The notes below the pieces were generated by a model. That model did no database searches. It was not told the DNA's origin and saw only the letters and a list, made by a program, of their open reading frames with translations. From UHGV virus genome UHGV-1378516: a stretch of DNA of 64,000 nucleotides, one strand, 5' to 3'. The stretch's first letter is position 1. Every line of letters begins with the position of its first letter. Positions 1-25,939 of this stretch are shown piece by piece. The translations under genes and the position numbers were made by a program. Origin of the DNA: a virus.

Positions 1-2413
1 CACCTGTTGTATTCGTTACACCAGACCAGTTTCTTGATGCGTTGAAGTTGACAGGGATACCTTTAGTAAAGTTGTTACCAGTATACCCTTTAGAACCTGC
101 CTGACTACCGAGGTAGAATGCACCACTTGCTGTGTAGAAGCCACTAGCGTCACTTCTGAAGTAACCAAATGAACCAGTAATCTCCATAGTACCTCTGTTG
201 TGGTTGTGGTTACCAGTTGTGCTAGAAGTCTTAGTACCATAGTCAAATGATGAAGTAGTAGCAGAGAAGCTGTGCGTGTGTGAAGGTAAGTTACCAACAG
301 ACAGCGTTACAGAGTCTGAACCACCAGTTGTAGCAACATCTGAACCGTTTGCTGCTGCAATTCTAATAGTTCTACCAACACCATTATTCAGGTACGTCCA
401 AGTTAACCCAGGAAGTGCTGTGTTTGGGTTGACATTACTGTTAAACCACGTCACAATACCTACTGGATAGATTTTATTCAGGTCTGTAGAGTCACTAATT
501 GCTTCTGCAATCTTCTGGTCAGTTTCTGCTTTAGTGTATGCACCAATATCTGAAGGGGTTGGTTTTTGCAAACTTGTGTAGTATTTTGCAATTGTACCCT
601 TCACAATACCTTGTGGAGCATCATCAAATGTCTGTGGGACTTCAAACAACTGTACACTTGCATTACTAGAAGACTGAACCCTTGTCGTTGTGCTGTTTTG
701 ATACGTACCAGCAAGATAGTAAATATCATAGGTGTCTCCAGAAGTATTCACATAACCAATATCCCTGACAATGGTGTTCTCTGATGTTCTCCAAGCAACA
801 ACATTTAAGCCCTTTGGATTGTTATTTGAAGTTCGCAGAACAATTTCACATTTACCTGCTTGGTTTGGTGTATTAATATTAAAACCTGACCCACCAAATA
901 CCTCAATAACAGCAGTGGATGCTGATTGTGGCATCACAACAGTGGCAATTTTAGCCCACTTATCAGTGTTTCCCACATTGAAGCTAGTGCTTCTGATTCT
1001 TAGGTATCTACTATCACTAGCACTTTGCGTAAAGTATCTAGCATCTAAGTTAGAGAAATCTGAAGGTTGAACTTGTCCAGCAATAGTCAATGTTTTGTTA
1101 ATGTATGATGTTGTATTCCCGAGAACCAATTGGGTTCCAGAATAACTGTTATTTAGGGTAACATCATTCGTATCAGCACCACCAACACCAATCCACCATC
1201 TTGATACATTAGCAGTGTCCACACCACGAATATATAATGGTCTATTCTGAGTAGAGTTTTTAACAATCAGACCTTCATTATCAGTAACAACTGTCTGTAC
1301 ACCATTAAAAGTATTCCTTGCATTAGTTCTTGCAATCGTACTTAATGTTGCTACCGGAATATATCTAGAGTCAATGTTAGCCCAATCTGAAGGTTGGACT
1401 TGTCCAGTGATTTGCACAGTTTTATTGATACCAATAGCAGTACCTAGTGAAATCTGTGAACCTGTAAGGTAGTTATAAATATTTAGACGTGTTTCGTCAG
1501 AATCTGTACCAACATACCATTTATTTGTTCCATCAGACTTCTTACCGAGAATGTAAAGTGCTGTACTTGCATCAGTATTCTGCAAAGTAATAGCATTAGC
1601 ATTCTTCTTAACAACAAGGTTAGTGAAAGTGTTAGCACCTGTAAAAGTGTTATTACCAGCTAACTGTGCAAATCTCTGATTAGCAACTGTCTGAGTGAAG
1701 TATCTAGCATCTAAGTTAGAGAAATCTGAAGGTTGAACTTGACCAGTGATTGCTAAAGACTTATTCACAGAGATGTTGCTTGCAATAGTCAAGGCTGAAT
1801 TGTATTTGTTATTATATAACTTCACTTCATCAGAGCCATTACTACCAATACCAACCCACCATCTAGCTGAACCATCTAGGTTTACACCTTCGATATATTG
1901 TGCATTATTTGCATTTTGGTTCCTAAGGCGAAGTAAGTTAGCATCACCTTGAATATTTTGAGTCCCAGAGAATGTGTTTGTGACAGCAAGTCTTGCATAT
2001 CTCGCATCATTCTCTTCATTAGTTCTCATACCAAGTTCATTAGGGCTTGGTTTATTCAAAGTATGATAAACAGTTGCTGACCTTGAAGCATCTGCAATAG
2101 TGAGTTTAAGACCATTTGAGTTAAGTTTAAAAGTCTTTAAAACATCCCCAATAGTAATTTCAGAAGAACCTGTAGGGTCAAATACAGCCTTGCCACCGTA
2201 AAGTAACTTGACAATACCTAAATCACCCGTCATAGTGCTACCAGCAATCTGAACAAACCTTTCTAGTTTGAAGGAAGCTAAGAAGTCTTGATAGGTCATT
2301 CTACGGTCTTCGTCACCCAACATTTCAGGTCTTTTCTTAACTCTGATGTGCAATAGGTCTTCTGAACGAATTGTGTCGATTGAGTTTAATTGACTCAATT
2401 TGTAATCTGCCAT
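1..2413 (-). CDS. tail fibre protein, 5' portion (gene continues past window start)
   Basis: Minus-strand frame open from ATG at 2413 (SD AAGAGGA upstream, in-frame stop at 2438-2440) to position 1; absent from ORF track because it has no in-window stop; hand translation shows internal repeats (..GQVQPSDFSNLDARYF..) and HTHS/NHNHN His motifs near the window start. Confidence 0.6.
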   Translation of the reverse strand, partial: MADYKLSQLNSIDTIRSEDLLHIRVKKRPEMLGDEDRRMTYQDFLASFKLERFVQIAGSTMTGDLGIVKLLYGGKAVFDPTGSSEITIGDVLKTFKLNSNGLKLTIADASRSATVYHTLNKPSPNELGMRTNEENDARYARLAVTNTFSGTQNIQGDANLLRLRNQNANNAQYIEGVNLDGSARWWVGIGSNGSDEVKLYNNKYNSALTIASNISVNKSLAITGQVQPSDFSNLDARYFTQTVANQRFAQLAGNNTFTGANTFTNLVVKKNANAITLQNTDASTALYILGKKSDGTNKWYVGTDSDETRLNIYNYLTGSQISLGTAIGINKTVQITGQVQPSDWANIDSRYIPVATLSTIARTNARNTFNGVQTVVTDNEGLIVKNSTQNRPLYIRGVDTANVSRWWIGVGGADTNDVTLNNSYSGTQLVLGNTTSYINKTLTIAGQVQPSDFSNLDARYFTQSASDSRYLRIRSTSFNVGNTDKWAKIATVVMPQSASTAVIEVFGGSGFNINTPNQAGKCEIVLRTSNNNPKGLNVVAWRTSENTIVRDIGYVNTSGDTYDIYYLAGTYQNSTTTRVQSSSNASVQLFEVPQTFDDAPQGIVKGTIAKYYTSLQKPTPSDIGAYTKAETDQKIAEAISDSTDLNKIYPVGIVTWFNSNVNPNTALPGLTWTYLNNGVGRTIRIAAANGSDVATTGGSDSVTLSVGNLPSHTHSFSATTSSFDYGTKTSSTTGNHNHNRGTMEITGSFGYFRSDASGFYTASGAFYLGSQAGSKGYTGNNFTKGIPVNFNASRNWSGVTNTTG

Positions 2414-2433
2414 TATGAATTTTCCTCTTAAAA

Positions 2434-2449
2434 GGGGCTATAAAGCCCC
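2434..2449 (-). terminator. weak hairpin terminator/attenuator between the two tail fibre genes
   Basis: GGGGC-tttata-GCCCC on minus strand followed by UUUU. Confidence 0.3.
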
Positions 2450-2459
2450 TGTAAAGAAA

Positions 2460-3635
2460 TTAAACTGTTCTCTGCCACACATATACTACAAAAGATGGCT
2501 GCTCAATACTGAAAGCTTGGCCACCACCAACAGAACCAGATGTTCCTGAGTGTGTATGCTCGGAGCTAGAAACAGTAACAGTACCTGTATGGCTGTGTGA
2601 ACCAATATTAACAGTATGACTATGAGCACCAATTGCAACAGTATGACTATGAGCACCAGATGATGCAGTTGTGCCTGAGAAGCTATGGGTGTGAGCACCA
2701 GCTAAATCAGTATACATAGCATTACCAACACCAGCATCAGCAGATGCAGTAATAGCATTTGTACCACCTCTATCATTACCCCTCATAGGTACTCTATGGT
2801 TGTGGTTACCAGCATTGCTTGTTGTGCCACTAAACGTGTGCGTGTGAGCACCAACACTGTTAGTTGTCTTCGTACCATAATCAAAAGTCGATGTACTTTT
2901 TGAACCATAATCAAAGCTAGAGATAGATACGCTTGCAGAGTGTGTATGACCACCACCTGTTAGATAGATAGAGTGAGTATGCGCTGGTAAATTATTATTT
3001 GTTAATGCTACAGTCTGAGAACCAAACATTGAACCAACAGGTCTAGAATCTGTATCATAACCAACTAGTGCTCTACCTTTAGAAACTAACTCCCAAGTAC
3101 CTCCACAAAGTAAGTAAGTGGATGGGTTAGCTGGATTCACAGATAGATGGATTGTCCCTACTGGATATGATGCTTGGATAGCTTTGTACAAGTTATTGAC
3201 TGCTTTTGCTGTAGCATATTTATCAGCATCTTCATTGTACAGATTGGATGTTGTCCAGTTCTGAACATTACTTAAACCGACCTGTGCTTTCGTTGTATTG
3301 TGTGGGTTACTTTTATCGTCAATATGTTTCTGAATTAAATTATTCACTTCCTCTGACGACATAATTTGTAGATTTGCTCTTGCCTCAGCAACACTTACAA
3401 CATCTGACAAGTTATTAGCTGCAACTAATTGAAGAGAGTTAATAACATTATCAAGACCTACTTGTGATTTAGTTACACCATGAGGGTTATTCCTCAAAGA
3501 TGCGTGAGGTGCTAACAACTGCTCAAGCGTACATCTTTTATCCTCAACACCTTGCTTAAGGTGGAAGATATCACTCAAATCAATTGGTAAGGCCGCTTGT
3601 GGCAAGGCACTAATTTGAATTTCACCTACTGCCAT
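2460..3635 (-). CDS. tail fibre protein with His-x-His repeat tip
   Basis: 391 aa; repeated AHTHS/GAHSHTV/NHNH motifs in C-terminal half; N-terminal ..KSQVGLDNV../..KAQVGLSNV.. motifs; last genes of structural operon. Confidence 0.65.
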   Translation of the reverse strand: MAVGEIQISALPQAALPIDLSDIFHLKQGVEDKRCTLEQLLAPHASLRNNPHGVTKSQVGLDNVINSLQLVAANNLSDVVSVAEARANLQIMSSEEVNNLIQKHIDDKSNPHNTTKAQVGLSNVQNWTTSNLYNEDADKYATAKAVNNLYKAIQASYPVGTIHLSVNPANPSTYLLCGGTWELVSKGRALVGYDTDSRPVGSMFGSQTVALTNNNLPAHTHSIYLTGGGHTHSASVSISSFDYGSKSTSTFDYGTKTTNSVGAHTHTFSGTTSNAGNHNHRVPMRGNDRGGTNAITASADAGVGNAMYTDLAGAHTHSFSGTTASSGAHSHTVAIGAHSHTVNIGSHSHTGTVTVSSSEHTHSGTSGSVGGGQAFSIEQPSFVVYVWQRTV

Positions 3636-3637
3636 TA

Positions 3638-3940
3638 TTAAGCTCCTACATATTCATATGTGTAAAGGTTTCTTGTACTTGTTGATGCAGTCCCTGTCTC
3701 AGACTTAATGAGGTTCCAGCCATTAGCCACTAAATCTGGTTGCTCAGTTGCATATGAGCGAACTTCACCAACAGTGCCGTTTACTTTATTCAGCAGGTAG
3801 TTGATAATATAGTTGAACCACTGTCTACCCATAGGCTCACCCTTTAAAAGACCTGTCTCTTGAACTTCCGGTGGTGGTAAAACTTTTAACTGATTACCAT
3901 CAGTATCTACTTCGTTTGTAGACCAATTTAGAACTGCCAT
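3638..3940 (-). CDS. hypothetical protein (tail fibre/baseplate associated by position)
   Basis: 100 aa ORF tightly packed between baseplate and fibre genes. Confidence 0.45.
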
Positions 3941-4794
3941 TAAGAATTTCCTTCTTGTTGTGATTTATCTTTTCTGCCTTTGACAATTTGTGCAACCTCA
4001 GCCATAACTCCGTATGCACCACCTGCAATAGCTTCTTTACCAACGATGAAATAACCACTCTTATTAGACCTATCTACAGTCATATAATCATCGCTCTGTA
4101 AGTTTGCTGTTCTGTCAACCTTAAAGTAACCATCAATAACACCAGCATCTGCAAGGCTACCTACTAAGTTGGACTCCAGAGAGCCACCAGTGTTATTTGT
4201 TACCAGACCTCTGTTAGCATCAGTTACAAACCAGTTCTCTTTATCATCAACAATAGCAAGTGATGAATCAGCAACCTCTACAGGTGTCCAAGCGGTCCCA
4301 TTTAAAGTAACATCTCTTAAGATAACAGCGGAACCAGTGGTTGTTGCAGAAATCTTTGACAGTGTATATGCAGCATCAAGAACGCTTTTTCTAGTATTAA
4401 TACGGATAACGATACCACCAGTCTTAGGAGTAATATGCTCAAAAATCTGAGAGAAAGTTGCACCATACAATGTCATAATTGCTTTTTGCAAGAATGTTGG
4501 AGTAGTGTCAGAACGTCTTAAGAAGATTTGGATATAAAGCATAGCTCTATATGTTTCATCATCAGCACCTAAAGGTCTAGGAACTTTAATCAGTGAGCCA
4601 ATATTATCAAGTTGTTGACCTACTGACGTCCTAATATTTCTCTCTGTGTGCATCTGCCAGCAAACATCTTCTAAGGTTTGTAACTCATCAGTGATTGCTT
4701 TCAAGATGCTTGTATAGATAAACTTATCTTTAAACTGTGTTACAGTCCTTTCATCAAGTGTTTTATAATAAACACTATCAATCTTTTCAAACAT
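3940..4794 (-). CDS. putative baseplate protein (gpI/gp48-like by position)
   Basis: 284 aa, directly downstream of baseplate J-like gene; assignment by synteny only. Confidence 0.4.
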
Positions 4795-4796
4795 TA

Positions 4797-6265
4797 TTAC
4801 TCCTTAGTGATGGTATACTGGCTACTTTCCCAAACAGTATATTGGTCACCGTCAACAGTAATTCTTGCTGTAGTATATTGTCCGTCACTAGGTGGAACTG
4901 ATTGGCTGTTTGATAATGCTACTTTCACCTCATTAATCTCAATACCTTTGATTACGTCATAGATGTACCCATAAATTCTGTTAGGGATAACATCATTACC
5001 AACCTTAAGAGTTCTTCCGTAGGCGTTAATACCTTGCACAATACTATCTCTGATATCTTCTTCAGGGATTGTCAAACTTTCTTCGTCATATAATGAGTAA
5101 GACACCTTAACAAATGCGTATTTTGGTGTTGGTCTGCTAAAATAGATATTATGTGCCAGACCACCTAAATCATAGGCTGTACCAAAAATTGAGCCATAAG
5201 CCCTGATACCAGCAGGTTTTGTATCCCAGATTGCTTGAGCAACATTATCATTTTGACCACCAACTACAACAATCTTAAAAGACTTTGGTGGAAGACCTTC
5301 TGAGTTTGTCTCTTCAGTATCATTTTCAACACCTGAAGCATCTGAGACACCTTGAACTCTTTTAACAGCAGCCACAATTGCATCCAAAGTCCCTACACCA
5401 GTAACTGCTAAGGATTCTAAATATCTCTGTCTAAGTTCTGTGTCAGTTTCTTCGTTTCTACCAGTTGTTAAGTCATACCTGTTATAAATACTGTCAAGAC
5501 CATCAACAGTTGTCTCAATCTCAATAAGCGTACCAGCCAAAGCAGGGGTAGCACCAACCTCTTCAGCTACTACATCTGAAATAGTTGTAATCTTTGTAAA
5601 GGGCAGAAACGTTGTTGCAGTGACAACCATAGGGTTTGTTCTTGCAATGATATCACCTTCGTCTTTATAGACTCTTAATGCGGCTCCATCATTAATGACT
5701 TCTGCTTTTGCTACAATACCACCATTAATAGCTTCTGCTAATTTTGTTAGCAGCGTAGTGATTGTGTCTAATGAGGTTGGTTTATATGAGAAAATGACGT
5801 TATCAATAATAATAACATAATCTGCATCAGTTCGTAAAGAGTTAACTTCAAGTGTAGCTTCAACACAATATGATGGAGTAAGGGTAATGTTATTAACTGG
5901 ATAAAAGATGTTTCCGGCAGTACTTCTTAATCTTGTTGTTGAAGGAATGGTAGCACCAGTAGTTCCAGTAAACTCAACTTGACCTCTTGTTGCCTGAGCA
6001 ACATATCTGTATACAGCATTCAAAGCTGTAATATCATCAAGGTTAAATCCTTCAGCCTTGTCAATTGTCCCGCCGTCATAGATTTCTGATAGAATCTCAT
6101 GTGTATCTGCTAAAGACCTTGCAATTGAAGCTAGGAAGAGACCTAATTGACTGTCTTCAGAGACGTCAAGGTTTGGTGAAATATCTCTAAGAAGTCTTGA
6201 TTTGATATTATCAAAAATTTCCTGATATCTTAGAGTTTGTAATCCTGTTGTAGTTAATCCTGCCA

Positions 6266-6266
<1 letters not shown>
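4797..6266 (-). CDS. putative baseplate J-like protein
   Basis: 489 aa, position between wedge-like and gpI-like genes in P2/Mu-type order; synteny-based. Confidence 0.45.
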
Positions 6267-11650
<5,384 letters not shown>

Positions 11651-23350: not shown

Positions 23351-23426
23351 TGGAGAATCCGAAGGGACTCGAACCCTTATAAACCTGTTTTGCAGACAGG
23401 CACATAGCCATTTCTGTCACGGATTC
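23351..23426 (-). tRNA. tRNA-Cys (GCA)
   Basis: Hand fold: CCA encoded, T-arm AAGGG-ACTCGAA-CCCTT on plus, 5-bp anticodon stem, loop gives GCA. Confidence 0.7.
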
Positions 23427-23430
23427 AAAT

Positions 23431-23523
23431 TGGAGGAAGATACCAGACTTGAACTGGTACACCGATTTCTCAGCTACTGGCAGTTTAGCAAACTGCTCCC
23501 TTACCTTTTAGGGTTAATCTTCC
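23431..23523 (-). tRNA. tRNA-Ser (GCU), long variable arm
   Basis: 93 nt; T-arm ACCAG-ACTTGAA-CTGGT; perfect anticodon stem GCAGT/ACTGC; matching acceptor. Confidence 0.7.
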
Positions 23524-23525
23524 AT

Positions 23526-24260
23526 TTATTTCTGTAATACGTTCTTCATTTCTGGTGTTGCAATAGTGTCAATTACACCAGTTTTACAAGCATCATCAAA
23601 CCAGTCTGGTAAGATACCTGCTAAGAACCCATTGATATTCGTTTTAAGGTACTCTGCAATAAGAGCAGCTTCTTCTTCAATCATCTGCACAACTTCATCT
23701 GCATAAGCTGTAATTTTTGAAATACCTTCATTAATCTTACTAACAGCTTGGTTAGCTAAATCAGAAATAGTATCAAGACCTTTGTCAATAGCGTCTTGTA
23801 AGTCACTTAATACATCATTAACACCGTCTAGTGCACTGTTAATCGTATCAATAGCTTTTTGACCATACTCTGTAGCAACACCCATAATACCACTAAATGG
23901 TGTACAACCAACTTGTTCACCTGCTGCACCCATAACATTAGAATAGCCTTTTGCTACCTGCATACGTGATGAGAACTCATCAATGGACTTTTGACCGTAA
24001 TCTGTCAGTGTTTTGGTAGTTGATGTAGTGCTTGTCAGACTCGTGGTAAAGCTGTTAAGCAGAACTGTTGTGAGTCCAGCAGCAACAAGCTTATCCTTTA
24101 CTGTAGGGTCTGATACAGAGCTAATAGAGCTTACAAGTGATGTAGAGGCAGCTACGGTTCCGCCGAGAACTGCTGCACCAGTAATAAGGGGGTTAGAAAA
24201 CCCTTTACCAGTTTTTAAGAGATTGAAAATCTCCTTACCTTGTTCTGTCATCTCTTTCAT
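23526..24260 (-). CDS. hypothetical Ser/Thr-rich protein embedded in tRNA array
   Basis: Track ORF 23526..24323 begins with GTG overlapping a tRNA; trimmed to in-frame ATG at 24260. Confidence 0.45.
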   Translation of the reverse strand: MKEMTEQGKEIFNLLKTGKGFSNPLITGAAVLGGTVAASTSLVSSISSVSDPTVKDKLVAAGLTTVLLNSFTTSLTSTTSTTKTLTDYGQKSIDEFSSRMQVAKGYSNVMGAAGEQVGCTPFSGIMGVATEYGQKAIDTINSALDGVNDVLSDLQDAIDKGLDTISDLANQAVSKINEGISKITAYADEVVQMIEEEAALIAEYLKTNINGFLAGILPDWFDDACKTGVIDTIATPEMKNVLQK

Positions 24261-24276
24261 TAAGCACCTTTGAAAT

Positions 24277-24353
24277 TGGTAGTCCAGTGGGATTTGAACC
24301 CTCTTCTCATGTTTTTCAGACACGCGCTTTAACCATATAAGCTACTTGGACTA
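24277..24353 (-). tRNA. tRNA-Phe (GAA), tentative
   Basis: T-loop ATTTGAA; perfect acceptor pairing; anticodon stem has one mismatch. Confidence 0.5.
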
Positions 24354-24358
24354 TAAAT

Positions 24359-24435
24359 TGGGGTGACCTACGGGATTTGAACCCGTATAGACCATGTTCA
24401 CAGCATGGGTCATTACCATTTATGATAAGGCCACA
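24359..24435 (-). tRNA. tRNA-His (GUG)
   Basis: Perfect T-stem ACGGG/CCCGT and anticodon stem CCATG/CATGG; loop gives GUG. Confidence 0.7.
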
Positions 24436-24465
24436 TTTAAGGACTCTCGTAAGAATCCTTAGAAG

Positions 24466-24541
24466 TGGCAGCGGCATAAGGATTTGAACCTTAATAGGAC
24501 AGCTTCAGAGACTGTTGCATTGCCAGTTATGCTATACCGCT
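24466..24541 (-). tRNA. tRNA-Gln (CUG), tentative
   Basis: T-arm TAAGG-ATTTGAA-CCTTA; anticodon loop gives CUG; D-arm GCAT/ATGC. Confidence 0.55.
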
Positions 24542-24546
24542 AAATT

Positions 24547-24618
24547 TGGTACTCCATATCGGATTCGAACCGATACATAACACAGATTTTAAGTCTGGCC
24601 TCTCTGCCAATTGGAGTA
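24547..24618 (-). tRNA. tRNA-like, atypical (short D-arm; anticodon possibly UAA)
   Basis: Clear T-arm ATCGG-ATTCGAA-CCGAT and acceptor pairing but only ~72 nt; anticodon arm ambiguous by eye. Confidence 0.35.
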
Positions 24619-24627
24619 ATGGAGCAT

Positions 24628-24703
24628 TGGCGGGGGATGTTGGAATTGAACCAACTTCTTCGATTTCAAAGACCGAGGTTTTAACCTTGTAAACTAATCC
24701 CCT
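24628..24703 (-). tRNA. tRNA-Gln (UUG), tentative
   Basis: T-arm GTTGG-AATTGAA-CCAAC; anticodon loop gives UUG. Confidence 0.55.
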
Positions 24704-24711
24704 TTAAATCT

Positions 24712-25269
24712 TTACTTTCTTAGTGGATGAATAAAGAATGCCAACATAACTCTTTCCCTTGAGAATGCTCTTTCTTCTGGGACAACGCTTTTAAGTTTCC
24801 ACCCAACATAAATTCTCCAGTAAAATTGTTTACCAAAGATTTTGATTGATGGCACAAAAGCGAATAACCCCCAAGCATTACTGTTCCACATTAGGAGATA
24901 ACCAGTTTGATTATCTTCAGGGTTAGAACTTACGTTGATATTACCTTTCCACTTAGTAACGTCTTTTACATCTCTTCCTAACACATGGTAAGAGAAGTTA
25001 TAAGCTTTGTTTCTCCAGAGCCATCCAACTCTCTGCATGTAGACACCAAGCTTACCAATCTTTCTAATCTTAGCCCATCGTTTGATATGACCTGCATCAC
25101 CATCAATTGGGTTGTCATAAGTCTCCATCCATCTGAACCCGAAAGGCAAGTGTCCTTTCTTCTCACTGTAGAATGGAACTACAAAAGGTGCTAAGATAAC
25201 TGCTAAGATTGCTGCAAATGGCTCTAACAAAGCTAAGAAAATCCATGAAGCATACTTTAAGTATCTCAT
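24712..25269 (-). CDS. hypothetical membrane protein embedded in tRNA array
   Basis: 185 aa, hydrophobic N-terminal segments (..WIFLALLEPFAAILAVILAPFVVPF..). Confidence 0.5.
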   Translation of the reverse strand: MRYLKYASWIFLALLEPFAAILAVILAPFVVPFYSEKKGHLPFGFRWMETYDNPIDGDAGHIKRWAKIRKIGKLGVYMQRVGWLWRNKAYNFSYHVLGRDVKDVTKWKGNINVSSNPEDNQTGYLLMWNSNAWGLFAFVPSIKIFGKQFYWRIYVGWKLKSVVPEERAFSRERVMLAFFIHPLRK

Positions 25270-25508
25270 TGTCTAATCCTCGTAAGGAGGTAAATGTTAT
25301 TATTAGTTTCTAAACCTTCTGGTAAAACTGTCTCAAAAATAACACTCTTCAGATGTCTACCACCAAAACAATCACGTATAAATCTTTCTACTCTAGCGGG
25401 GTCACATAAGTATCCCACTTTTAAGAAAATGTGGTGTTCAACACCAATGACCCTGACAAACTCAATACTCTCACAGTTTTCATGTTCAACTACTGTTAAT
25501 GTTTGCAT
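25266..25508 (-). CDS. hypothetical protein
   Basis: 80 aa, ATG at 25508, stop/start overlap with downstream ORF. Confidence 0.45.
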   Translation of the reverse strand: MQTLTVVEHENCESIEFVRVIGVEHHIFLKVGYLCDPARVERFIRDCFGGRHLKSVIFETVLPEGLETNNNIYLLTRIRQ

Positions 25509-25525
25509 AGTATCACCTTTTTATC

Positions 25526-25601
25526 TGGCGCAGGATAAGGGATTCGAACCCCTATTAACAGCTTCGTAGACTGTTGCTCTTTCCATTTGAACTAATCCTG
25601 C
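25526..25601 (-). tRNA. tRNA-Arg (ACG)
   Basis: T-arm AAGGG-ATTCGAA; anticodon loop gives ACG; perfect acceptor. Confidence 0.65.
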
Positions 25602-25606
25602 AAAAT

Positions 25607-25684
25607 TGGTGTTCCAAGACGGATTCGAACCGTCACTAATACAAGGTTTGAGCTTGCATCCTCTGCCAATTGGGATACTGGAAC
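25607..25684 (-). tRNA. tRNA with anticodon CAA (Leu-type) but short variable arm
   Basis: Perfect T-arm GACGG-ATTCGAA-CCGTC; 5-bp anticodon stem with U33/A37 gives CAA; A73; only ~78 nt. Confidence 0.5.
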
Positions 25685-25685
25685 A

Positions 25686-25760
25686 TGGTACTCACTAAAG
25701 GACTTGAACCTTTTTCTTCATCTTGTAAGGGTGATGTTTTACCATATAAACTAAGCGAGT
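25686..25760 (-). tRNA. tRNA-Val (UAC)
   Basis: T-arm AAAGG-ACTTGAA-CCTTT; anticodon stem TCATC/GGTGA; loop gives UAC. Confidence 0.65.
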
Positions 25761-25856
25761 ATGAAAGAGGTCTGGAGTTGTGCCGCTAACTCAACTCCGT
25801 GGAATTTGTTACGGTCTTCAGTTGACTCAAAGCGGTCTTTCACTTGACCTCTGAAT

Positions 25857-25932
25857 TGGTGCTCCCACAAGGACTCGAACCCTGATAAGTTGCTTACAAG
25901 GCAACCGTAATAACCAATTATACGATAGGAGC
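25857..25932 (-). tRNA. tRNA-Thr (UGU)
   Basis: Perfect anticodon stem GTTGC/GCAAC; loop gives UGU. Confidence 0.7.
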
Positions 25933-25939
25933 ATTAATT

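Follow-up and report, generated by a model that had tools for sequence, protein, structure and literature searches.

The paralogy of the two Felix O1-type tail fibres and their similarity to T4 gp37 have been in print since 2010, and the fibre architecture since 2025. In Felix O1, gp76 and gp77 share common repeats and C-terminal similarity to T4 gp37, and mass spectrometry of virions identified gp77 (PMC3185647). Felixounaviruses depend on lipopolysaccharide (LPS) (PMC8594841). Cryo-EM of Bas63 (JohannRWettstein; Sci Adv 2025) revealed virions bearing both fibres, and each fibre ends in a tip of collar, His-x-His (HxH) needle and head (PMC12609058). The Shigella phage Sf14 (Mooglevirus; Commun Biol 2025) has two fibres on its tail, one of 391 amino acids (aa) and one of 792 aa (PMC11821841). 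In the T4 gp37 tip (PDB 2XGF, Bartual et al. 2010), the HxH motifs of three chains coordinate one metal ion per level, and this metal coordination rigidifies the six-stranded needle. That the two fibres give dual receptor specificity has been proposed in print for these phages (PMC11821841, PMC12609058).

The window, a 64,000-nt stretch of virus genome UHGV-1378516, is from a Felixounavirus and shares 97% DNA identity with Escherichia phage wV8. Its first part holds an arrangement that is genuine but ordinary, having already been described in the literature: very probably the pair of fibres with which a wV8-like Felixounavirus recognises its host, each fibre with a gp37-type tip, in a locus of cassette exchange. 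The short tail fibre gene (STF, 2460..3635) is a complete ORF of 391 aa. It is orthologous to wV8 gp82, Felix O1 gp76, Bas63 gp26 and Sf14 gp52, matches phrog_2097 (tail fiber; E = 6e-138) and is 97% identical in DNA to its annotated wV8 counterpart; the identical 391-aa protein is present on three public contigs. The long tail fibre gene (LTF, 1..2413) begins with an ATG at 2413 and has 804 of its 848 codons inside the window. Its orthologues are wV8 gp83, Felix O1 gp77, Bas63 gp27 and Sf14 gp53, and it matches phrog_4277 with 1254 bits. The wV8 pair has the same gene order and the same lengths (391 and 848 aa), and only a few substitutions separate the two pairs (97% DNA identity to the wV8 fibres; 98.3% amino-acid identity for LTF). 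Together with the Pfam domains gp37_trimer and Gp10_C, the wV8 and PHROG matches confirm that these are tail fibres, as a preliminary description had proposed. Both genes are carried on the minus strand, which corrects that description, whose ORF coordinates stand; all features below are on this strand.

Directly upstream of STF, 3638..3940 encodes a 100-aa protein of phrog_4141 (E = 1.5e-60), a family without assigned function. It is likely the long-fibre platform, equivalent to Bas63 gp25, because gene order and protein sizes (489-aa wedge 2, 284-aa wedge 1, 100 aa, STF, LTF) parallel Bas63 gp23-gp27.

The short fibre opens with a putative baseplate-binding domain (residues 1-45; 3501..3635), assigned by comparison with Bas63 cryo-EM (PMC12609058) and 91-98% conserved across Ounavirinae. 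In the shaft (residues 46-140; 3216..3500), NPHxxTKxQVGLxNVxN occurs twice (residues 50-66 and 110-126), and many PHROG tail families match residues ~96-140; this segment may form the 'triple alpha-helix and turn' of PMC12609058. The collar domain (YPVGT...NNNLPA; residues 141-218; 2982..3215) scores 64.1 bits against Pfam Gp10_C (PF21939; cut-off 27) and aligns with T4 gp10 and the gp37 collar. The descending needle strand (residues 219-282; 2790..2981) has HxH at 219, 230, 264 and 278, contains an FDYGxK duplication and aligns with the T4 gp37 needle in 2XGF. A drop in identity then marks the hypervariable head, a putative receptor-contact loop (residues 283-312; 2700..2789): it is 97-100% identical to the heads of the O157 phages wV8 and HY02 and 23-30% identical to those of Felix O1, VpaE1 and SUSP2, with 53-98% identity in the flanking regions in the same comparison. 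The ascending needle strand and C-terminus (residues 313-391; 2463..2699; HxH at 315, 329, 338, 347 and 360) lead back to the collar. The Bas63 short fibre gp26 has seven HxH by its authors' count versus nine here, although the counting convention may differ (PMC12609058).

In the long fibre, the N-terminal baseplate-binding and proximal region (residues 1-133; 2015..2413) is 95-100% conserved within Felixounavirus and has no match in a Pfam search. Three tandem ~110-aa shaft modules follow (residues 134-463; 1025..2014), delimited by repeats and Pfam gp37_trimer: (i) module 1, residues 134-241 (1691-2014); (ii) module 2, residues 242-354 (1352-1690); (iii) module 3, residues 355-463 (1025-1351). 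These are the internal repeats noticed earlier in the larger gene, and they are 34-44% identical in pairs (BLASTP E 1e-16 to 1e-26). Every module closes with the linker GQVQPSD(F/W)xN(L/I)DxRY; GQVQPSDFSNLDARYF is found at residues 224 and 446, and its variant GQVQPSDWANIDSRYI at 337. At the DNA level, a 74-nt core recurs at intervals of 327 and 339 nt, its copies being 72-84% identical. Against Pfam gp37_trimer (PF20744) the modules score 252 bits in three stretches, and a profile built from them hits the pyramid domain of T7 gp17 (E = 3.7e-8) as well as fibre protein S of Mu (E = 7e-4). The T7 pyramid (4A0T/7BOZ), Mu protein S (5YVQ) and gp37_trimer are of the same domain family as the modules. 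The domain is single before the tip in T7, whereas here three tandem copies occupy the shaft, each with a conserved alpha-helical linker. Sf14 shaft domains are T7 gp17-like and Mu gp49-like, as here (PMC11821841), and Bas63 gp27 likewise has repeated shaft domains, with variability concentrated in tips and shaft repeats (PMC12609058).

Beyond the modules lies a knob cassette (residues 464-640; 494..1024), made up of a beta-sandwich at about residues 485-612 and the conserved junction KPTPSDIGAYTKAETDQKIAEAIS. The knob region spans 177 aa here versus 118 aa in Felix O1; Sf14, judged from its close relative Silverhawkium (118-aa version), is without the wV8-type knob. Long fibres have been described as free of large indel differences (PMC12609058), yet the knob domain is longer by 59 aa in the wV8 type. 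The collar domain (residues 641-711; 281..493) is 97-100% conserved in Felixounavirus, aligns to the STF collar and scores 28.7 bits against Gp10_C (cut-off 27). A descending needle strand (residues 712-740; 194..280; HTH at 712, HNH at 736) leads into a wV8-type head of ~65 aa, the putative receptor-binding tip (residues 741-804; 2..193). The window edge cuts off the ascending His-box strands, which carry HSH at 806 and 815, together with the C-terminus. The Bas63 long fibre is reported to have six HxH (one HHxH) and five beta-helix repeat domains (PMC12609058); this one differs in having four HxH, a larger head and a T-even-like knob that replaces the last domain. Felix O1 has six HxH versus four here, and other versions of repeat module 2, knob and head. 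The LTF head shares 97% identity with those of wV8 and HY02; the figure falls to 62-65% for JN01 and Silverhawkium and to 14-19% for Felix O1-type fibres. This head type recurs in Ounavirinae of E. coli O157, Shigella and Citrobacter, and in Salmonella in one phage record only. Sf14 shares it at 59% identity over head and flanks; that phage belongs to a different genus, and identity elsewhere is 40-70%.

The fibre locus was compared with those of seven relatives: wV8, HY02, JN01, Silverhawkium, Felix O1, VpaE1 and SUSP2. Such a comparison had been called for in the preliminary description, which suspected a recombination hot spot, and the suspicion is supported: repeat modules, the knob in mid-fibre and the two heads have each been exchanged on their own among the relatives, with breakpoints at conserved junctions. 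JN01 DNA departs from the window sequence beyond LTF residue 263. In HY02 the divergent stretch covers residues 146-466, interrupted by an island of similarity at 217-263. Felix O1 DNA retains similarity in just three places, residues 445-466, 617-734 and 808 to the end, and the breaks at 734 and 808 fall exactly at the His-box strands. Taken together across eight phages, both heads are 97-100% identical to wV8 and HY02, 62-73% to JN01 and Silverhawkium, and 14-30% to Felix O1, VpaE1 and SUSP2. JN01 is an O157 phage too, and Silverhawkium a Shigella phage. This locus evolves through exchange of cassettes, and the conserved junctions used are the GxHxH strands, the GQVQPSD...RY linkers and the KPTPSDIGAYTKAETD segment. 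For T-even phages, 'His box' recombination in gp37/gp38 was reportedly described by Tetart, Krisch and co-workers in 1996-1998. There, as in LTF, GxHxH segments flank hypervariable receptor-binding parts and mark exchange boundaries. The present phages are of another group, however, and exchange here also occurs at non-His linkers (GQVQPSD...RY and KPTPSDIGAYTKAETD).

By homology to T4 gp37, each fibre would be a homotrimer with a C-terminal, probably metal-binding tip of collar, needle and head. The chain would run down the needle, through a small head and back up to the collar, with the HxH of both strands pointing inward. The 391-aa short fibre combines a long needle of nine HxH with a hypervariable head of ~30 aa. 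In the 848-aa long fibre the needle is short (2 + 2 HxH) and the head, at ~65 aa, larger; inserted between its ends are three shaft modules resembling the T7 gp17 pyramid and a knob of beta-sandwich type. Several features depart from T4: each fibre here is a single baseplate-attached protein, whereas gp37 is the distal quarter of a four-protein fibre; HxH number nine (STF) and four (LTF) versus seven; the heads differ; and there is no gp38-like gene adjacent to the fibre genes. The genes are adjacent on one strand, and by analogy with solved relatives both fibres would sit on the virion simultaneously, as six trimers each. The heads would be the receptor-contact sites, and the receptor is most likely LPS sugars. 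If binding proceeds as in T4 and as the Bas63 authors discuss, the first, reversible contact probably falls to the long fibre, after which the short fibre would bind and commit the baseplate.

Alternatively, each fibre could act as a primary adhesin in its own right, the two recognising different LPS or O-antigen structures, a parallel rather than sequential dual specificity. Their tips are alike gp37-type, not gp12-type, and both heads are hypervariable, falling into parallel identity classes across eight phages; the Sf14 authors propose different receptors (PMC11821841). In Bas63, however, the short fibres are present at full occupancy and stay folded on the sheath, mobility being a feature of the long ones, and its authors invoke T4-like sequential use (PMC12609058). 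We regard parallel use as a real possibility, if on the doubtful side, and prefer long-then-short binding.

Between the two genes, which are 46 nt apart, lies a stem-loop (GGGGC-TTTATA-GCCCC, then TTTT; 2430..2449), followed by the LTF ribosome-binding site AAGAGGAAA (2421-2429). It folds at -16.5 kcal/mol (z = -3.2), the matching stem-loop in wV8 is annotated as a rho-independent terminator, and the stem is kept with variable loops in eight Ounavirinae. A conserved terminator-like hairpin at this position could modulate LTF expression. It would suit a scheme like that of phage Mu, in which either fibre set, but not both, is expressed or mounted on a given particle, yielding two host ranges instead of two-step adsorption; the Sf14 authors draw the Mu analogy (PMC11821841), and Bas63 3D classes have 0-6 long fibres in the retracted position (PMC12609058). 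Such alternation is very unlikely. The genes share a strand, and cryo-EM of Bas63 and Sf14 places both fibre types on the same particles at different baseplate sites (PMC12609058, PMC11821841), the short fibre attaching at wedge 2A and the long fibre at the platform. Simultaneous display remains the preferred reading.

The HxH motifs themselves are strongly enriched. STF has 24 His and nine HxH; its shuffles average 1.4 with a maximum of seven, and 0 of 20,000 reach nine. The in-window part of LTF has two HxH against a shuffle mean of 0.04 (10 of 20,000 reach two), and full-length wV8 LTF has four versus 0.11 expected. The earlier view that both genes are HxH-rich thus holds for STF as it stands, but for LTF only if the 44 codons outside the window are counted in. 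GAHSHTV is likewise present in STF but not in the in-window LTF: its counterpart there, GDHSHTVGIGAHSHTV (residues 804-819), is beyond the edge, on the identical ENA contig k141_9616 (L002) only. STF matches 2XGF with E = 9e-27, HxH aligned to HxH, and a profile of LTF tips does so with E = 2.5e-13. Judged by these alignments, the likeness to T4 fibre tips that had been noticed is homology, beyond resemblance. The two genes are also paralogues, as suggested: STF and LTF match in BLASTP (E = 9e-9), and their tips align end to end (z = 17 versus shuffles), with a weak alignment of the N-termini (z = 4.1). The tips are repetitive and biased in composition, and HMMER bias scores are high for the 2XGF alignments, so that HxH might be a by-product of low-complexity Gly/Ser/Thr/His-rich sequence, unrelated to the T4 metal-binding motifs. 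This is highly improbable, since composition-keeping shuffles never attain the STF count, the STF motifs match those of gp37 position by position in an alignment that continues through the non-repetitive collar, and, of the eight Ounavirinae compared, all but SUSP2 (seven HxH) keep all nine positions. Descent from a gp37-type tip is the reading we keep.

The truncation of LTF is a contig end, in keeping with the earlier remark that the larger gene is cut by the window edge. The window starts exactly where JGI contig Ga0495776_019280 ends (0 mismatches over 9,635 nt), and contig L002, also with 0 mismatches to the window over 9,635 nt, carries an uninterrupted 848-aa LTF gene. On L002 the 44 codons missing here, in which a stop or frameshift would have marked a pseudogene, are intact. 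The ORF does leave the window at codon 804, with its stop codon and ascending needle strand outside, but given that contig end, the unbroken gene on L002, the equal length and 98% identity of wV8 gp83 and the mass-spectrometric detection of the Felix O1 orthologue gp77 in virions (PMC3185647), it is scarcely credible that LTF is a decayed or truncated pseudogene and the 391-aa fibre alone functional.

Two intact, adjacent tail fibre genes lie at the start of the window. They encode paralogues, both homologous to the receptor-binding tip of T4 gp37, and they have undergone modular exchange. The short tail fibre gene (2460..3635, minus strand) is complete at 391 codons. The long tail fibre gene (1..2413, minus strand) follows after a spacing of 46 nt, with an ATG at 2413 and a frame that stays open for 804 codons to window position 1. 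A plus-strand reading of positions 1-2420 was rejected because all three frames are full of stops, and the fibre genes were therefore assigned to the minus strand. The preliminary description had recognized a real tail fibre locus and read it correctly, save for two corrections that concern the strand and the location of the motifs.

The fibre region is 97.2% identical at the DNA level to Escherichia phage wV8, a Felixounavirus, and equally to several E. coli O157 typing phages. The wV8 annotation gives gp82 (391 aa) and gp83 (848 aa) as tail fibre proteins and places a rho-independent terminator between their genes. The short fibre protein falls in the PHROG tail fibre family phrog_2097 (E = 6e-138) and the long fibre in phrog_4277 (1254 bits). 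At least 95% identity to the short fibre was found in 29 phage records. Eight felixounaviruses among the matches listed and a relative, Shigella phage Sf19, are 75.6-77.7% identical; AYO145A, REP8 and VpaE1_ev78 belong to this group. The long fibre protein is 98.3% identical to that of wV8 and ∼80% identical to that of Felix O1 over the shared parts. Upstream of the short fibre gene lie ORFs of 100 aa (3638..3940), 284 aa (3940..4794) and 489 aa (4797..6266), all on the minus strand, with more baseplate genes beyond. Downstream of the long fibre gene, the identical contig k141_9616 and wV8 carry genes for a 65-aa and a 123-aa protein, the latter annotated as a holin in JN01, Silverhawkium and SUSP2. 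We checked gene order in the window ORFs, k141_9616, wV8, Felix O1, JN01, HY02, VpaE1, Silverhawkium and SUSP2. The Ounavirinae order is kept: wedge 2, wedge 1, 100-aa protein, short fibre, long fibre, small protein and holin, after which td and frd lie on the other strand. By full-length similarity and gene order, the two genes are the short and long fibre pair of the Ounavirinae, known as gp76/gp77 in Felix O1, gp82/gp83 in wV8, gp26/gp27 in Bas63 and gp52/gp53 in Sf14.

The larger gene had been described as truncated by the window edge, and public contigs explain why. The exact 391-aa short fibre protein occurs on three of them. JGI contig Ga0495776_019280 (86,617 bp) matches the window without a difference over 9,635 nt and stops at the very same base, which makes the window edge a contig end. 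Over the same 9,635 nt, ENA contig k141_9616 (86,597 bp) is identical too, and it then continues into an uninterrupted 848-aa long fibre gene; a pseudogene was rejected on this ground. The last 44 residues of this gene product contain the ascending His boxes absent from the window, GDHSHTVGIGAHSHTV, together with the conserved C-terminus. The JGI contig has roughly the length of a genome, and its break falls in the long fibre gene a few dozen bases before a repeated segment coding for GxHSHTV. The missing 44 codons probably lie at its other end, which fits a genome assembled as a circle and then opened at a point that was arbitrary or induced by a repeat.

That the two fibres are paralogues, as had been proposed, is borne out at both ends of the proteins. 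BLASTP aligns them over the collar and the first His boxes (E = 9e-9), and when the full-length long fibre is used, the two tips align over their whole length (z = 17 relative to shuffled sequences). Similarity between the N-terminal ∼45 residues is weak but greater than chance (z = 4.1; 5 of 2,000 shuffles). We found no long DNA repeats common to the two genes: the best match covers 55 nt at 76% identity, and no exact word in common exceeds 16 nt. Repeats of this length are too short for efficient homologous exchange between the paralogues within this genome.

The tips of both fibres can be placed on the crystal structure of the T4 gp37 receptor-binding tip (2XGF). Residues 145-362 of the short fibre match chain positions 17-227, a span that takes in the collar and both needle strands (E = 9.3e-27), and this fibre also matches the T4 gp10 C-terminal domain. 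The long fibre alone, searched by phmmer against the PDB, gave only a marginal match to T7 gp17 (E = 0.056), so profiles were needed for structure matches; a long fibre tip profile from seven phages matched 2XGF at E = 2.5e-13. A collar of the Pfam family Gp10_C (PF21939) lies directly N-terminal to the needle in both proteins, scoring 64.1 bits in the short fibre and 28.7 bits in the long (cut-off 27). With this homology, the collar and His-x-His motifs on both needle strands, both fibres carry gp37-type tips.

The claim that both tips are rich in His-x-His motifs holds for the short fibre, which has nine, four before the head and five after it. Composition-preserving shuffles contain 1.4 ± 1.1, and none of 20,000 reached nine. 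Seven of the nine align with the seven of gp37, with one extra at each collar-proximal end (219 and 360). Among the eight Ounavirinae short fibres compared, all but that of SUSP2, which has seven, show nine motifs at conserved positions. A count of seven is given for the Bas63 short fibre in the paper on that phage (PMC12609058); either Bas63 differs or the collar-proximal motifs at 219 and 360 were left uncounted. Within the window the long fibre has just two, HTH at 712 and HNH at 736, a number that is nonetheless unusual for a stretch with six histidines (10 of 20,000 shuffles). Two more follow the head at residues 806 and 815 and are visible only in k141_9616. The segment GAHSHTV had been quoted for both fibres; within the window it belongs to the small protein and not to the large.

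The full-length long fibre consists of a conserved proximal part (residues 1-133), three pyramid-like modules each closed by a GQVQPSD(F/W)xN(L/I)DxRY linker (134-463), a knob and the junction KPTPSDIGAYTKAETDQKIAEAIS (464-640), a collar (641-711), a descending strand with two His-x-His motifs (712-740), a head (741-803) and an ascending strand with two more, plus the C-terminus (804-848). The internal repeats reported for the larger fibre correspond to the three modules of ∼110 aa (134-241, 242-354 and 355-463), which are 34-44% identical (BLASTP E = 1e-16 to 1e-26). Self-BLAST of the whole protein gave the identity match alone, and the modules were found by BLAST of segments against the whole and by a module HMM. 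In the DNA, good conservation among them is limited to the linker core, with 72-84% identity over 74 nt and, for modules 1 and 3, 94.5% over 55 nt. The module HMM found no further copies in the rest of the long fibre or in the short fibre, where matches had E ≥ 0.18. All three modules match Pfam gp37_trimer (PF20744; 252.3 bits in three stretches, cut-off 21.7). A profile of 21 shaft modules from the same seven phages as the tip profile matches the T7 gp17 pyramid domain (4A0U, 4A0T and 7BOZ; E = 3.7e-8) and the Mu fibre protein S (5YVQ; E = 7e-4).

The knob sets the wV8-type long fibre apart. In Felix O1-type long fibres a gp37_C domain (PF12604) precedes the collar, whereas the wV8 type has a different knob there, 59 aa longer and only 22% identical. 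Assignment of this knob to gp37_C was rejected: the profile scores 19.0 bits over the whole protein and 15.7 bits over residues 464-640, below the curated threshold of 22.5, and covers just its last ∼25 positions, in contrast to 116 bits for the equivalent Felix O1 domain. Relatives at 35-50% identity occur in T-even gp37 shafts, such as T2 gp37 at about residues 823-964, and also in Salmonella phages and prophages. The homologue search returned 27 proteins, mostly partial. An AF2 model built on 24 sequences predicts a nine-strand beta-sandwich at residues ∼485-612 (window ∼578-961, minus strand) with moderate confidence overall (mean pLDDT 68, pTM 0.69) and ends that are not confident. The N-terminal module of WceF, a tailspike-like enzyme, is similar to the model, as are, more distantly, carbohydrate-binding modules and galectins. 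These likenesses hint, as a long shot, that the wV8-type knob might be a second, lateral glycan-binding site instead of a passive shaft spacer. Were this so, the knob and the head of a single fibre would be two separate carbohydrate-recognition cassettes, each swappable independently of the other.

Comparison of the fibres of the window, wV8, JN01, HY02, Felix O1, VpaE1, Silverhawkium and SUSP2 revealed where the two genes vary. The proximal part and the collar of the long fibre are 95-100% conserved within the genus, while the three shaft modules vary independently among the phages compared. Relative to the window, modules 1, 2 and 3 are respectively 98%, 54% and 71% identical in JN01, 55%, 54% and 32% in HY02, and 93%, 52% and 78% in Felix O1. 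Two versions of the knob occur. For the head, identity is 97% to wV8 and HY02, 62-65% to JN01 and to Silverhawkium, a Mooglevirus, and 14-19% to the Felix O1 type, whose tip has six His-x-His motifs and a head of ∼30 aa. The short fibre is hypervariable only in its head (283-312), at 23-30% identity to the Felix O1 type between flanks at 53-98%.

Segments of high DNA identity end at conserved junctions. Similarity to JN01 runs to long fibre residue 263, and that to HY02 extends up to residue 146, resumes at 217-263 and again from 466 to the end. With Felix O1, similarity is confined to 445-466, 617-734 and the stretch from 808 to the end, so that the linker motif, the KPTP junction and the His-box strands mark the exact limits of the knob and head cassettes. 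Among Ounavirinae, the wV8-type head is found in phages of E. coli O157, Shigella and Citrobacter, Sf14 among them, and in only one Salmonella phage record, whereas the wV8-type knob is present in Salmonella felixounaviruses too; the two cassettes therefore assort independently. With modules exchanged independently and breakpoints at conserved junctions, the suggestion of a recombination hot spot gains support. Tetart and Krisch reportedly described exchanges mediated by His boxes in T-even adhesins, which the cassette exchange in the long fibre parallels. The known cassette limits (shaft modules, knob and the two heads) offer practical cut sites for host-range engineering.

The two-fibre arrangement itself is ordinary biology, and each of its elements has been published for the genus. 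According to the 2010 Felix O1 genome paper, nucleotide repeats common to genes 76 and 77 give rise to similar protein segments, both products resemble T4 gp37 C-terminally and gp77 is a virion protein by mass spectrometry (PMC3185647). In 2025, 391-aa and 792-aa fibres with T7 gp17-like, Mu gp49-like and gp10_C-like domains were described on the tail of Sf14 (PMC11821841). The 2025 study of Bas63 explicitly compared the collar, His-x-His needle and head tip of short and long Felixounavirus fibres with 2XGF, likened repeated shaft domains of the long fibre to T4 gp34, and found separate baseplate attachment sites and sequence variation concentrated in the tips and shaft repeats (PMC12609058). 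Cryo-EM shows both fibre types on the virion at distinct baseplate sites in Bas63 (PMC12609058) and Sf14 (PMC11821841). PMC6669636 uses T4 gene names that are hard to map onto the two fibres. Our only additions to this literature are the breakpoint map of the long fibre and the recognition of a wV8-type long fibre that differs from the Felix O1/Bas63 type in its swapped knob, shorter needle and larger head.

The two fibres decide which bacteria the phage can attack, and wV8-like phages serve in E. coli O157:H7 typing and biocontrol. By analogy with T4, Bas63 and Sf14, each fibre would be a homotrimer whose needle has metal ions coordinated along its axis by His pairs from all three chains, and the heads would contact LPS sugars. 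Felixounaviruses are LPS-dependent (PMC8594841). A receptor-prediction preprint lists the genus among LPS-targeting clades with no assigned receptor, and the accessible portion of PMC13419801 makes no mention of it. As in relatives, both fibres would be mounted on one virion, the short fibre on wedge 2 and the long fibre on a platform, for which the 100-aa product of the ORF at 3638..3940 (minus strand) is the most likely candidate. How the two heads would share the work is finely balanced. Parallel dual specificity, suggested in the preliminary description, would give each fibre its own receptor, and the Sf14 authors propose different receptors for their two fibres (PMC11821841); it has a roughly even chance. 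We favour sequential use, likewise at about even chances, in which the mobile long fibre would engage first and the short fibre second.

Expression of the two fibres could also be tuned. A stem-loop (GGGGC-TTTATA-GCCCC followed by TTTT; 2430-2449, minus strand) separates the two genes, directly ahead of the ribosome-binding site of the long fibre gene, AAGAGGAAA. It folds at -16.5 kcal/mol (z = -3.2), and its stem is kept with varying loops in eight Ounavirinae, with a terminator annotated in wV8. A consensus terminator scan missed the hairpin, whose T-run is 4 and not 5, and it was found by reading the sequence. The proportion of short to long fibre transcripts could be set by this hairpin.

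Several smaller features accompany the fibre locus. The short fibre shaft contains two copies of NPHxxTKxQVGLxNVxN, at residues 50-66 and 110-126 (window 3438-3488 and 3258-3308, minus strand). Many unrelated PHROG tail families match this segment, which marks the motif as a widespread fibre linker. A third trimeric protein of the module with a His-x-His motif is the 207-aa central baseplate spike (6685-7308, minus strand), with HTH at 188-190 near its end, at the same positions as the iron-binding H188 and H190 reported for the Bas63 puncturing apparatus. Elsewhere in the window, ARAGORN detected 26 tRNA genes clustered at 23351-28562 (minus strand) that cover all 20 amino acids except Trp, a cluster typical of Felix O1-like phages (22 in Felix O1 and 26 in Pr103Blw).
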